Shown one piece after another: positions 23,318-49,767 of a stretch of DNA of 60,068 bases. The DNA comes from a phage. Positions within the stretch are counted from its first letter, which is position 1. Each line of letters starts with the position of its first letter. The stretch lies in the sequence record PZ445425.1; one strand, given 5' to 3'. The translations under genes and the position numbers were made by a program. The notes below the pieces were generated by a model. It was not told where the DNA came from. It searched no databases and saw only the letters and a list, made by a program, of their open reading frames with translations.

Positions 23318-23521
23318 ATGTGTGGTAATACTAACCGTTGCTGTCTAGGCAGTCCTGCAACACAAGCAGGTATACTTCAGGGGCAATTGGCTCAAGCAGC
23401 GTGTAATTGCAAAACTTTTCAACCAGTAGCGCCAACTCCTGTGTTTGTGAATGCTTTTGCACCGCCTGTTTTCAATACTTTTGGCGTATACCCATACGGT
23501 GCTTTCTTTCGTATATTCTAA
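23318..23521 (+). CDS. small Cys-rich protein
   Basis: 67 aa, RBS GGAGG; several Cys. Confidence 0.4.
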   Translation: MCGNTNRCCLGSPATQAGILQGQLAQAACNCKTFQPVAPTPVFVNAFAPPVFNTFGVYPYGAFFRIF

Positions 23522-43631: not shown

Positions 43632-44111
43632 TTATTGAATTGAACCGCGATCAATTAACCATTGTTTCGCGTGCGCTTTAAAAATAATGCGATAGTCATC
43701 AAGACTAATCTCCGCGCGGATGGAATCTTTAACTTCGTACCACTGCCACTCACCATTGCTAAAGACGACTGGATTGAGCGGTAGAACAACCTTCCATCCT
43801 TTACGTTCTATTTTATACATCAGAACTGGATATCTTCCAAGCTCTTTAGCCGATTGAACAGTCTGCTTCCACCATGTGTTTACTTGTGGCGTAGCGTGGT
43901 TTTTTACTTCAACTGCATGGTGGCATGTATTGCTAATGTCGCAACCACCGACCGCACTTTGATTCTGGTTACGCTGAGCAATAGGTTTCTCCGGTAACTG
44001 CATCCCCAGCTCTGCGTAGATTTCGGCATAAATTGCATTAAAGAAATCGCATACTTCCCGCTCACCGCGTTGACCTTTAGCGCGAATATTTACTGCCATG
44101 TTTGTCTCCAT
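43632..44111 (-). CDS. PD-(D/E)XK nuclease, possible Holliday-junction resolvase
   Basis: GQRGEREV ... CDIS ... EVK pattern; start set to ATG 44111 because the track start at 44189 overlaps the terminator hairpin. Confidence 0.35.
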   Translation of the reverse strand: METNMAVNIRAKGQRGEREVCDFFNAIYAEIYAELGMQLPEKPIAQRNQNQSAVGGCDISNTCHHAVEVKNHATPQVNTWWKQTVQSAKELGRYPVLMYKIERKGWKVVLPLNPVVFSNGEWQWYEVKDSIRAEISLDDYRIIFKAHAKQWLIDRGSIQ

Positions 44112-44172
44112 AACTTTAATGTAAAACACTTCATAAAGAATTTTATATTGAAGTTCTGTTGATCTCAAGGAA

Positions 44173-44204
44173 CAAAAAAGCCCAGGCATAAGGATTCCTG
44201 GGCT
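44173..44204 (-). terminator. intrinsic terminator
   Basis: agcccagg ... cctgggct hairpin followed by TTTTTT on minus strand. Confidence 0.6.
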
Positions 44205-44485
44205 CTCTTGATTGTCGGATAGCTTACTTTGACTGCCGTCTTCGTCTATCCTGGCCTACTTGTACAGCCTCGCCAAAGGCTGGTGACGGTTTGGTACATC
44301 TGGCGCCGTCGCGTTAAACATCGTTCACATCGTTCAGTAAGTTGCGGGTTTATCCTGTCCGCTCCAGGAAGCCCAGCGAAAGTAGTTGCTGTAAGGAGGT
44401 ACAGCTACCGCTTTCAAGGGTTTGAGTTAAGCATCGTTCACTAAGTTAATGTTGTTAAATTGTTAAACCTCGTTAACTGTGGTTA
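44205..44485 (-). ncRNA. candidate non-coding RNA or structured leader
   Basis: About 280 nt without a plausible ORF, bounded by a TAACCACAGTTAAC box (44471-44485) and the terminator; contains ATCGTTCA(C) direct repeats. Confidence 0.25.
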
Positions 44486-44516
44486 TCTTAAAGGATGCAG
44501 TCTTGAATGGCAAGCT

Positions 44517-44834
44517 TCAATTTTGCGCGGTTCCCTTTGCCGCTTTTGGTGCTAAAGTACCATCATTTAACATCAACTCAAAACCTGTTACTTGATCGGT
44601 TGGAACAATAGGGTAATTCATAATAGCCATGTGGATACGACACCCTCCATCACATTCGTCGATGTATTCACTACCCCAATAGTATAAATGACCATCTCTT
44701 CGAATATCCATTGCTGTAGGGAAATCTACAAGAATTCTTTTGATTTCTTTTCGTCCTTCTTTATGCAGATTAGTTTCAATACGGATAAGCTCCGCATAAA
44801 TTGCTTCACAGATAGTGTTTACAATTCCCATCAT
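44517..44834 (-). CDS. hypothetical protein
   Basis: 105-aa ORF. Confidence 0.45.
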   Translation of the reverse strand: MMGIVNTICEAIYAELIRIETNLHKEGRKEIKRILVDFPTAMDIRRDGHLYYWGSEYIDECDGGCRIHMAIMNYPIVPTDQVTGFELMLNDGTLAPKAAKGTAQN

Positions 44835-48355: not shown

Positions 48356-49099
48356 TTATTGCGGAGTTGTGATAATATGGTTACTAACTTCTAACATAAC
48401 GTCCTGCGGCTCCCTTCCCTGTCTTAAGCTAATAAGCCAATTATCAATGTTCGGAAGAATATTTTTAGCCTGCTCAGCATCCCTGTATAGTGCAAGGTCT
48501 ACCCAATGAGCGCCGAGCTTGACACGGATAGCGGTAGCGGTTTCATAATGGTGCAGGGAACAGGTAGGCCAGCGACCGCGATTATCCCAGTCCCGAACAT
48601 CGCCGCTCCGGCGCATCCTGTACCAACGATGTGTCAATTTATCCGCTTCCTTATCTGTCAGAGGATCCCCTTTGAGCAAGGCTTGGCGCTCTATCCATGC
48701 TTTAAGCTCGACGTTTTCCTTGCGTCCCGCCTTACCCTTATCTTCTTTTACCTTAAATGCTTCTTCATATGGGTCGTTACCCTTGCCCATGTGGTAATTG
48801 AATTTGCCCGTATAGCTGCGAAGCTCTTTGGCATCCAGATCATGACCCAGCTTATCGCTAACCCATGCAAGGAAAGCCGCCCTTTCTGCATCCAGCTTTC
48901 CCGCTTTTTGTCTTACAGCTTTTTTAACAGGCTGTTCCACATCTTCGTTGAAGTAATCCTCCACCATAGCAAGTGCCTGTGATTTGGTTGGCGCACCGCG
49001 CAACTGCGAGCAAGCTTGCACAACCCAGGCAGCAAAACACAAATCTTTAACCACAGTTTTAGATGTTAATGGTGCGGATGTGATAGTTTCTTCGCTCAT
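48356..49099 (-). CDS. hypothetical protein (possible replication initiation factor)
   Basis: 247-aa ORF immediately downstream of the iteron/AT-rich region. Confidence 0.45.
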   Translation of the reverse strand: MSEETITSAPLTSKTVVKDLCFAAWVVQACSQLRGAPTKSQALAMVEDYFNEDVEQPVKKAVRQKAGKLDAERAAFLAWVSDKLGHDLDAKELRSYTGKFNYHMGKGNDPYEEAFKVKEDKGKAGRKENVELKAWIERQALLKGDPLTDKEADKLTHRWYRMRRSGDVRDWDNRGRWPTCSLHHYETATAIRVKLGAHWVDLALYRDAEQAKNILPNIDNWLISLRQGREPQDVMLEVSNHIITTPQ

Positions 49100-49123
49100 A
49101 AATCCTCCTAGTCAACTGGTGAA

Positions 49124-49394
49124 GCCACTATAAAACAGACATTAGCTATTTGCAAGGATTGTTTTAATATAGTGCTTAGTGGCGTACATAGTGGGCAAAA
49201 TGTGTATAGTGCGCCGTTACTGGCTTTATAAAAGTTTGCCACTATAAACCACTATTCCACTATTCACTAATTTTTATTTTTGACACAGAGTAAAGTTTAT
49301 AAGTTTACGGTTTTCCCCTTATTACCCCGTTTTCAAACAAAGAATTAGTAGTAGTAGTGAAACATAGTGAATGCCACTATACCACTATACTATG
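49124..49394. repeat. iteron-like CACTAT/ATAGTG repeats
   Basis: At least 11 copies of CACTAT or its complement in both orientations, including GCCACTATAAACCACTATTCCACTATTCACTAA. Confidence 0.65.
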
Positions 49395-49429
49395 CATTTT
49401 ATGAAATCTCGGTTGGCTCGCTCCCTATA

Positions 49430-49560
49430 AACTTATAAACTTTCAGTCAACTAACTAAAACAAATATAATTAAACTAATAGTAAATAATAACTATAAATA
49501 TATATAAAATAAGGATTTATTATTAATGTATATATTACCTATTGGTATTATTTGACGAGT
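49430..49560. other. AT-rich tract (possible DNA-unwinding element)
   Basis: Over 80 percent A+T with tataaac and tatata repeats, adjacent to the iterons. Confidence 0.5.
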
Positions 49561-49767
49561 TTATGGTCATTATATAAACCATATAAAACTTCATAAACCT
49601 GAACGGATGCAGATCAAAAATGAGAAGTCAAGTGCTTTGAGGGAAATTTATTGAACTATTGTGATCGGAAGGTATATCAAGCTATAATGCGCTTAATCGC
49701 GGGATATTGGAGGAGGACTTTATTGAGCGGTTAACCGGACCAGTAGGAGGGCTGGCCCGGAAGTAGT

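Follow-up and report, generated by a model that had tools for sequence, protein, structure and literature searches.

A probable structured RNA gene with an anti-Shine-Dalgarno hairpin and a covarying pseudoknot in Seuratvirus phages

Base-pairing small RNAs (sRNAs), among them the hairpins of Staphylococcus RNAIII and the enterobacterial CyaR, mask Shine-Dalgarno (SD) sequences with C/U-rich hairpin loops. Other bacterial RNAs work as arrays: the type III antitoxins ToxI, CptI and TenpI are of this sort and have phage mimics, the pseudo-ToxI RNAs. Compact H-type pseudoknots with an A-rich third loop are found in preQ1-I riboswitch aptamers and at luteoviral frameshift sites. BoxA elements shield long untranslated RNAs, including CRISPR arrays, from Rho (PMC7665894), and the phage-encoded RNA Racr, which resembles CRISPR repeats, needs a Cas6-binding stem for its activity (PMC10651486). 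Here we describe a gap poor in open reading frames (ORFs)—minus strand, 44190-44516, 327 nucleotides (nt)—in 60,068 nt of phage DNA (sequence record PZ445425.1; the whole stretch is hereafter the window). This gap very probably holds a real, previously unannotated and modular gene for a structured non-coding RNA. Phage-encoded small structured RNAs are known as a kind; the family described here is new.

The window comes from a Seuratvirus phage (subfamily Queuovirinae; CAjan/Seurat group), and the 2 kb surrounding the locus share 96–98% identity with Escherichia phages Seurat, CAjan, KS_A8, GottfriedDienst and about 30 others. Coding sequence fills 93% of the window, which has six ORF-free stretches of 150 nt or longer, the gap among them. 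It lies in the early/replication gene block, with a primase gene nearby, where local genes run along the minus strand. Our favoured explanation, to which we assign a probability of roughly 55%, is that a stand-alone gene of ~305 nt specifies a structured RNA that acts in trans as a multi-headed regulator or decoy. An initial annotation, made from the sequence alone, had already proposed a non-coding RNA here; all the elements it described are present, at coordinates agreeing within 1 nt, and its proposal gains support from a structure conserved through compensatory changes and from the lack of a conserved ORF.

Conserved secondary structure in related phages had been named in that annotation as a check on the proposal, and this is what the relatives display. 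Structure was tested with a seven-helix model, including one pseudoknot, that comprised 48 pairs across 13 distinct variants. Pairing is kept in 99.2% of pair cells, and 12 pairs show compensatory double changes, compared with 3.2 ± 1.4 in shuffles (none of 500 shuffles reached 12). Sliding the partners by 1–3 columns reduces the compensatory pairs to 1–2, the same main helices are recovered independently by RNAalifold, and the homologue in Hafnia phage yong3 contributes three more compensatory pairs in the core hairpins H4 and H5. Since many pairs are G-U, which would be A-C mismatches on the opposite strand, the structure belongs to the minus-strand transcript, in agreement with the direction of the promoter and terminator described below. 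The fold of the whole RNA has z = −2.7.

Signals for starting and ending transcription bracket this structure. A promoter scan detected a sigma-70-type promoter at 44485..44513 on the minus strand, with a −35 hexamer TTGCCA (44513-44508), a 17-nt spacer and a −10 hexamer TAAGAT (44490-44485). Its counterparts are TTGACA-17-TAATAT in Salmonella phage STP-SP5 and TTGCAA-17-TAAGAT in yong3, where the spacer is largely different; in these alignments the element evolves as a promoter would, with hexamers kept or improved while the spacer diverges. The initial annotation had placed the 5′ boundary instead at a sequence box. That box does exist (TAACCACAGTTAAC, 44472..44485, minus strand, overlapping the end of the −10 hexamer as well as the predicted start site), but it does not mark loci of this type, as it is a copy of an 8-mer, TAACCACA, found 46 times in the window; nor is it conserved in STP-SP5, which has TGTGAACTATG at the equivalent position. 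The true boundary is the promoter. Going by the −10 position, transcription would begin at about 44478-44480, within the box, and the 3′ end is predicted to fall in the U-tract at 44179-44174, so that the promoter and terminator positions together predict a primary transcript of ~305 nt (44174..44480, minus strand).

The strong terminator reported earlier stands, as a hairpin and U6 at 44204-44174 with a free energy of −21.9 kcal/mol and z = −5.7. It reads AGCCCAGG-loop-CCTGGGCT followed by T6 (44174..44204, minus strand), that is, an 8-base-pair (bp) G+C-rich stem, a 10-nt loop and U6, and the consensus terminator scan missed it solely owing to the 10-nt loop. OddieOddie-type phages and yong3 have a different hairpin and U-tract in this position. 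Just beyond lies the next promoter, TTGAGA-17-TAAAAT (44140..44168, minus strand; 10/12 matches), which serves the downstream nuclease gene and is not part of the RNA; yong3 has TTGCAA-18-TATAAT in the same place, and SA126VB has an annotated promoter there. In three lineages a terminator is followed by a new strong promoter, an order that survives even replacement of the terminator sequence. Because the RNA has its own promoter and terminator and is followed by a fresh promoter, it constitutes a separate transcription unit, with the pair of signals—own promoter, own Rho-independent terminator—that in silico distinguishes a stand-alone sRNA gene. Host RNA polymerase would transcribe it from its own sigma-70 promoter, and its own intrinsic terminator would end it.

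The locus is also conserved beyond its surroundings. A 426-nt intergenic stretch is 98–99.8% identical in about 30 phages, compared with 96–97% for the 2 kb around it and above the level of the flanking genes, with the RNA of Bas21 GottfriedDienst at 99.8%. The RNA region is 98.4% identical in slur01 and 78.6% identical in STP-SP5, compared with 59% and 42%, respectively, for the protein encoded upstream. This fast-evolving protein of 105 amino acids (44834..44517, minus strand), which retains 17% identity in yong3 and found no match in a Pfam search, is encoded by a gene whose stop codon lies 4 nt before the −35 hexamer of the RNA promoter; the gene is nonetheless always directly 5′ of that promoter.

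No protein accounts for this conservation. The sole annotated alternative is an ORF of 71 amino acids on the plus strand (44229..44444), which exists as first described, with a TTG start and no SD sequence, and which automatic annotation called as a coding sequence in KS_A8 and, in a shorter version, in GottfriedDienst; the curated record for Seurat leaves the interval empty. It is not conserved and runs antisense to the covarying RNA structure: it is split and frameshifted in STP-SP5 and truncated at its N-terminus in OddieOddie and Dru_SM1. As the initial annotation had held, there is no convincing minus-strand ORF either; the longest on the RNA strand have 27, 21 and 17 codons, and the frame or length of these short ORFs differs between relatives. 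On both strands, each ORF is disrupted, shifted in frame or cut short in one relative or more (STP-SP5, OddieOddie and Dru_SM1 among them), and the locus tolerates indels of 1, 2, 3, 8 and 9 nt. The conserved small protein-coding gene that would have spoken for a different reading was thus absent from the relatives compared. The alignments indicate that the 71-amino-acid ORF is not a gene, and we regard it as extremely unlikely that this ORF or a short minus-strand ORF encodes a protein; as is typical of an sRNA gene, no ORF is conserved and RNA structure explains the conservation that is seen.

Within the predicted RNA, two diverged modules of ~104 nt each, A and B, begin with the same junction sequence of ~22 nt. 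They are preceded by an A/U-rich, largely unpaired leader (44422..44480, minus strand, as are all features of the RNA) that carries five to six U(U/G)AAC motifs, one every 8–11 nt, a type of motif kept in STP-SP5 and yong3. Junction repeat 1, AACUUAGUGAACGAUGCUUAAC (44426..44447; repeat families D1 and D2), opens module A, and is followed by hairpin H1 (44370..44421), a 19-bp interrupted stem topped by the loop ACCUCCUU(A) at 44400-44392, with a local fold z = −3.5. Six pairs of the H1 stem show compensatory changes; its loop is invariant. Next comes an H-type pseudoknot (44344..44368), CCUG-GA-GCGG-A-CAGG-AUAAAC-CCGC, the second stem of which is GUGG/CCAC in STP-SP5 instead of GCGG/CCGC.

Module B opens with junction repeat 2 and a variable linker, AACUUACUGAACGAUGUGAACGAUGUUUAAC (44313..44343), in which a 9-mer stands in tandem. 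This is the most variable stretch among close relatives, with point changes and, in Dru_SM1, three copies. It is at this linker that the metagenomic Seuratvirus contig L022 (ERZ1026901 NODE-154, ~1130-1240), and no other variant, has a third module of ~100 nt between A and B, equipped with a separate hairpin, CCCGCAU-GUUCGUU-AUGCGGG, and a further pseudoknot copy, CCAG-GA-CUGU-A-CUGG-AUAAAC-ACAG, in which both stems differ, five of eight pairs have changed, all are still paired and the loops are kept. A nested alternative to the pseudoknot was rejected as incompatible with the STP-SP5 and L022 variants.

Core hairpin H4 (44285..44310) consists of a 5-bp stem and a 16-nt loop at 44305-44290, GACGG-CGCCAGAUGUACCAAA-CCGUC, and is invariant in the phages of E. 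coli and Salmonella; in yong3 it becomes GAGGG-CGCCAGAAGUACCAAA-CCCUC, with a compensatory pair and 15 of the 16 loop bases kept. The loop CGCCAGAUGUACCAAA is the most conserved element in the family. Core hairpin H5 (44265..44282; CAGCCUU-UGGC-GAGGCUG) differs by two compensatory pairs in yong3 and by a single G-U in STP-SP5. UGGCG in the loop region of H5 is complementary to CGCCA of the H4 loop, both sides being invariant, and a loop–loop contact is possible. The last hairpin before the terminator, H6/H7 (44217..44251; GGAUAG..GAC-GGCA-GUC..CUAUCC; local fold z = −2.3), has conserved internal GAAG and CAAAGUAAG and five compensatory pairs in the diverged version shared by OddieOddie, Dru_SM1 and L019 (AUAAGG..CCUUAU; GCU-GAAU-AGU). 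Two further pairings were considered and discarded: a long-range helix GAUGCUUAAC/GUAAGCUAUC from the single-sequence fold is unsupported by the OddieOddie-type variants, and pairing of the leader's UAACGAGGU with the H1 loop, 8/9 in the window, is lost in STP-SP5.

The direct repeats pointed out in the initial annotation are confirmed: TGAACGATG (ATCGTTCA on the plus strand) occurs three times in the gap, at 44319, 44328 and 44432, and nowhere else in the 60-kb window, where 0.42 copies are expected. These copies belong to longer, 16-nt repeat families. In three direct-repeat families the copies are set 104 nt apart, or 113 nt where the extra 9-mer is counted, so that modules A and B represent an old tandem duplication, and the transcript may be processed at the junction repeats (AACUUA/UGAACGAUG). 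One might read the same repeats at the level of DNA, taking TGAACGATG and TTAAC as iterons and the A/T-rich stretch as an unwinding element of a replication origin, primer-RNA or single-strand initiation site. The direct repeats, the A/T-rich segment just after the promoter and the location in the replication block near the primase are all compatible with that. Yet close relatives conserve the repeat tract less than any other part, the compensatory changes and G-U pairs indicate a structure in single-stranded minus-sense RNA, GC skew does not switch here, and a repeat cluster at 49125-49388 is much more iteron-like, all of which makes a DNA-level role for the locus highly improbable.

That cluster belongs to the largest non-coding gap of the window, 49100-49681 (582 nt), which is very AT-rich, lies upstream of a minus-strand gene for 247 amino acids (48356..49099) and includes several promoter-like sites; seven of the nine window copies of ATAGTGG fall within 49125-49388. 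An origin or operator region is plausible there.

How far the family extends was explored by several routes. A metagenome scan yielded seven further variants, and the copy in Hafnia phage yong3, beyond the reach of BLAST, was located by synteny. In yong3 the H1 hairpin and pseudoknot are replaced by a short hairpin with the loop CCAGAUUCUUACCAAAG, which resembles the H4 loop, and H4 and H5 are retained. It follows from this comparison that the family core consists of the leader repeats, H4/H5, GAAG...CAAGUAAG and the terminator, and that the module with H1 and the pseudoknot is specific to one lineage. In OddieOddie, Dru_SM1 and their kin, the 3′ third is diverged and the terminator differs, and an HNH endonuclease gene has been inserted after it; this looks like co-conversion, with an unsampled and more distant phage, itself a carrier of the RNA, as donor. 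Free-standing HNH homing-endonuclease genes lie directly 3′ of the RNA gene in loci L005 (2884-3369), L006 (2894-3406) and L027 (1844-2356), and SHIN8, WildeMaa and Greed also have insertions downstream of it.

Outside these phages, searches returned nothing convincing. No recognisable homologue occupies the syntenic spot in Nonagvirus 9g, Klebsiella Kpn2-P2, Providencia PSTCR4 or Pantoea Vid5. The RNA sequence has no match in 5,426 E. coli genomes, and plasmids hold no similar sequence. Across 185,579 genomes of bacteria and archaea, a pattern for the core loop met only chance hits and a Mesorhizobium element. In IMG/VR, a degenerate core pattern of two blocks gave 28 new hits, all coding or chance, and loci L025 and L028 were likewise dismissed as chance hits. 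Rfam 15 gave no hits at gathering scores across the whole window, and all that permissive Rfam searches returned for 44050-44560, the 51-nt pseudoknot segment and the yong3 homologue was noise or driven by the terminator, and scored far below threshold; ARAGORN found no transfer RNA (tRNA) or transfer-messenger RNA in the window. As far as we have seen, the gene is confined to Seuratvirus phages of Escherichia, Salmonella and Hafnia. Three of the syntenic spots have contents of their own. PSTCR4 (L015 1851-2330) has an ORF-poor unit of ~400 nt running from promoter to terminator upstream of the nuclease gene and sharing ACTTAGTGAAC with the window, although homology is not established; 9g (L013 2034-2492) has an apparently unannotated ORF of ~90 codons and a terminated stretch of ~170 nt; and Vid5 (L016 2191-2278) has a tRNA-Ser gene.

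Turning to function, the loop of H1 (ACCUCCUUA) reproduces exactly the final 9 nt of E. coli 16S ribosomal RNA (rRNA), the 3′ end of which, ...GGATCACCTCCTTA, was read from strain K-12. The loop is thus an exact anti-SD sequence, held invariant on a covarying stem. We consider it probable that the RNA acts in trans, whether as regulator, decoy or sponge, with its exposed loops binding partners. The anti-SD loop might pair with the SD sequences of messenger RNAs (mRNAs), any strong one being a possible partner, so that ribosome-binding sites would be blocked or sequestered; as the mechanism of module A this is a tentative proposal, more doubtful than not. The conserved core loop, for its part, would bind a second partner, RNA or protein. 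Outside the RNA locus, the phage genome has a single perfect UAAGGAGGU, before a small gene at 23318; the ORF in question (23318..23521, in window segment 23304-23521) encodes 67 amino acids, is cysteine-rich and stands at the end of the plus-strand late block.

Several points weigh against a trans-acting, multi-headed regulator or decoy. The transcript itself is a prediction. The yong3 homologue has, in place of the anti-SD hairpin and pseudoknot, the shorter hairpin with the CCAGAUUCUUACCAAAG loop, so that SD pairing cannot be the function of the whole family. An antisense scan of the phage genome with the conserved loops gave no outstanding target (best z about −5 among ~20,000 windows), and a further search of this sort met only the antisense strand of the locus itself. 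Conservation of nearly every nucleotide fits a ribonucleoprotein or a tertiary-structured RNA better than a seed-pairing sRNA. Lastly, the leader, which resembles BoxA, could point to a role in cis in transcription.

This last point rests on leader segment GGUUUAACAAUUUAACAACA (44469-44450), similar to the part of the E. coli rrn leader that contains BoxA. Against the rrnH leader CUCUUUAACAAUUUAUCAGACA it shows a 12-nt exact match and 18/19 identities with one gap (p = 0.018 against shuffles). The BoxA consensus is GCUCUUUAACAA, and 9 of its 12 positions are matched; hits with at most three mismatches are near chance genome-wide (94 found, 74 expected). A cis-acting element could be built from these parts: the leader, possibly with the folded RNA, would recruit Nus factors or modify RNA polymerase, as happens at rrn operons, lambda nut or HK022 put, and the polymerase, having become resistant to termination, would continue into the nuclease, dUTPase and replication genes, with the ~305-nt RNA left as a terminated by-product. 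Besides the rrnH match, the location of the segment 10–30 nt past the predicted start, as in rrn and CRISPR leaders (PMC7665894), would suit this, as would the order of promoter, structured leader, terminator and same-strand genes.

We nevertheless think such a role in cis unlikely. The match to the consensus lacks its 5′ GCUC, and consensus hits of this quality are nearly as common as chance predicts. With a strong promoter directly 3′ of the terminator in three lineages, the downstream genes need no read-through. Where the base of H1 has changed, in L008 and STP-SP5, the compensation lies within H1 and does not involve the terminator, and OddieOddie-type phages have swapped the terminator without any change upstream; together these exclude an antiterminator/terminator switch. 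For the same reason an attenuator or riboswitch leader was rejected: CUGGGCUU at the H1 base could pair with the 5′ arm of the terminator in the window, but this pairing is not maintained in the variants. Complexes of Nus factors with BoxA mainly counter Rho rather than intrinsic terminators. A BoxA here would more simply protect an untranslated RNA from Rho, which fits a trans-acting, stand-alone RNA.

Taken together, the BoxA-like 5′ segment and the 16S-tail hairpin also invite the idea that the RNA is a miniature phage imitation of host rRNA transcripts. Its leader would load or titrate Nus antitermination factors, and its copy of the 16S tail would capture SD-containing mRNAs or factors that recognise the anti-SD tail. 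We hold this to be quite improbable, and rRNA mimicry beyond the 9-nt tail and the BoxA segment was not significant. Were it true, host translation and rRNA synthesis would be redirected or shut down early in infection, in a takeover effected by RNA rather than by protein, and exchangeable tandem modules would let different phages display different ‘heads’.

Tandem modules are equally what one might expect of a decoy or sponge in which modules and leader motifs would bind and titrate a protein of host or phage origin (Hfq, a Nus factor, a ribonuclease or a defence effector, for instance), in the manner of CsrB/RsmZ or of type III antitoxin repeats and their phage mimics. The modules are paralogous, with conserved junctions, and vary in number (two, or three in L022); a pseudoknot sits inside the module; the unpaired leader has periodic U(U/G)AAC and CUGAAC motifs that are kept in kind in yong3; sequence conservation is near total; and a superficial parallel to type III toxin–antitoxin loci lies in the order promoter, repeats, terminator, nuclease gene. 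That resemblance does not go deep. The modules are ~104 nt long and strongly diverged, not near-identical repeats of 34–45 nt, and the only arrays returned by Tandem Repeats Finder were 9-nt × 2 and 8-nt × 2, not the array of a type III antitoxin. The downstream gene specifies a PDDEXK-type DNA nuclease, has its own promoter and is separated from the RNA by other genes in several relatives. GGA motifs, which CsrA binds, are absent from yong3, and a CsrA sponge was discarded on this ground; a decoy for tRNA-guanine transglycosylase was set aside too, UGU being paired in H1 and replaced by AGU in yong3. We rate protein sequestration as rather unlikely.

One segment of module A recalls a host CRISPR repeat. 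Between the pseudoknot region and the 3′ half of the type I-E repeat of E. coli there is a marginal similarity, in which AGCGG-ACA-GGAUAAACC aligns to AGCGG-GGAUAAACC of the K-12 repeat GAGTTCCCCGCGCCAGCGGGGATAAACCG (3-nt gap; p = 0.025). By analogy with Racr, the hairpin and AUAAACC would imitate the repeat stem and 5′ handle and cause Cas proteins to mis-assemble. GGAUAAAC is kept directly after the hairpin in STP-SP5 and in the extra module of L022, and Salmonella type I-E arrays also have an upstream BoxA (PMC7665894). The stem, however, is not reproduced (UCCUG/CAGGA with a 7-nt loop, compared with CCCCGC/GCGGGG and GCCA), so that repeat mimicry with a Cas6-binding stem-loop was not found; the bases that follow AUAAAC form a pseudoknot stem with the loop and covary with it, a feature for which a repeat mimic would have no need; comparison with the K-12 leader plus repeats reaches no significance (p = 0.14); and the module is missing in yong3. 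A Racr-like mimic is therefore very unlikely.

The 8-mer that overlaps the start site deserves separate mention. TAACCACA/TGTGGTTA is the most frequent 8-mer in the window, its 46 copies comparing with 2.2 expected from base composition (examples are at 688, 2793, 6037, 13313, 25704, 35281, 44485 and 55921). Copies stand on both strands, are mostly intragenic and occur in at least four reading-frame contexts—Val-Val, Thr-Thr, Asn-His and Trp-Leu, as well as across stops and between genes—and this spread over strands and frames marks the 8-mer as a signal at the level of DNA. It recurs in the 5.4-kb loci of distant relatives, with three copies in 9g, five in Providencia PSTCR4 and four in Pantoea Vid5, at 0.55–0.92 per kb compared with 0.77 in the window. 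The motif resembles the DnaA box (TTATCCACA), with A instead at the fourth position. For CAjan, preQ0 modification has been reported in the contexts GA and GGC (PMC7544227), neither of which the 8-mer contains. We found no mention of the motif in the literature searched; it may matter independently, as a DNA signal common to deazaguanine-modifying phages of several host genera.

The nuclease gene (43632-44090, minus strand; ATG at 44090) lies downstream of the RNA gene and its terminator and is followed by the dUTPase gene. In relatives the nuclease is labelled ‘RusA-like Holliday junction resolvase’, but the Pfam match is to PF24608 PDDEXK_15 (E = 1.4e-13), a family of putative phage PDDEXK endonucleases, and not to RusA.

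Seuratviruses, including CAjan, Seurat and several phages of the BASEL collection, are widely used model coliphages in which this locus has been left empty or misannotated as a hypothetical protein; the literature searched mentions it nowhere and offered no Seuratvirus transcriptome. An RNA conserved above the neighbouring proteins implies an important function, possibly in host takeover or counter-defence. Its exact mimic of the anti-SD, its compact pseudoknot with covariation and its invariant 16-nt loop give experiments clear points of entry, in phages that are genetically tractable, several of them held in public collections. The new family joins a very small set of structured RNAs from virulent phages and illustrates how RNA-gene modules are gained and lost.

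Set beside the systems with which we began, the RNA shares something with each. Like the BoxA leaders of rrn operons and CRISPR arrays (PMC7665894), it has UUUAACAAUUUA just past the start of a long untranslated transcript, which this could shield from Rho; unlike them, it matches only the 3′ two-thirds of BoxA, and it repeats the motif several times. Like Racr (PMC10651486), it is a small phage-encoded non-coding RNA with local similarity to a CRISPR repeat (GGAUAAACC after a hairpin), although it does not have the conserved repeat stem-loop and the similarity is marginal.

Its pseudoknot has the geometry of preQ1-I aptamers and luteoviral frameshift elements: a first stem of 4–5 bp, a 2-nt first loop, a 4-bp second stem, a 1-nt junction and a 6-nt A-rich third loop. 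Neither preQ1-I nor any other riboswitch was hit in Rfam at E ≤ 10 when the 51-nt segment was searched. The junction is a single A in all three copies, not the ligand-pairing C of preQ1-I, and the element lies neither upstream of an ORF or queuosine genes nor inside a coding frame.

With type III antitoxin arrays the RNA has in common a promoter, tandem units of variable number, a pseudoknot and an intrinsic terminator before a nuclease gene. It differs in that its units are diverged and ~104 nt long, those of the antitoxins being near-identical and ~36 nt, and in its neighbour, a PDDEXK DNA nuclease gene under a promoter of its own where the antitoxins have an RNase of the ToxN/AbiQ kind.

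RNAIII and CyaR share with it a stable hairpin with a pyrimidine-rich apical loop complementary to the SD sequence, several functional hairpins and a stand-alone gene with its own promoter and intrinsic terminator. Their loops carry a short UCCC or C-rich motif; the loop described here is an exact 9-nt copy of the 16S 3′ end, dispensed with in the Hafnia phage homologue and otherwise displayed on a phage-encoded RNA of ~305 nt that is built from tandem modules and includes a pseudoknot.

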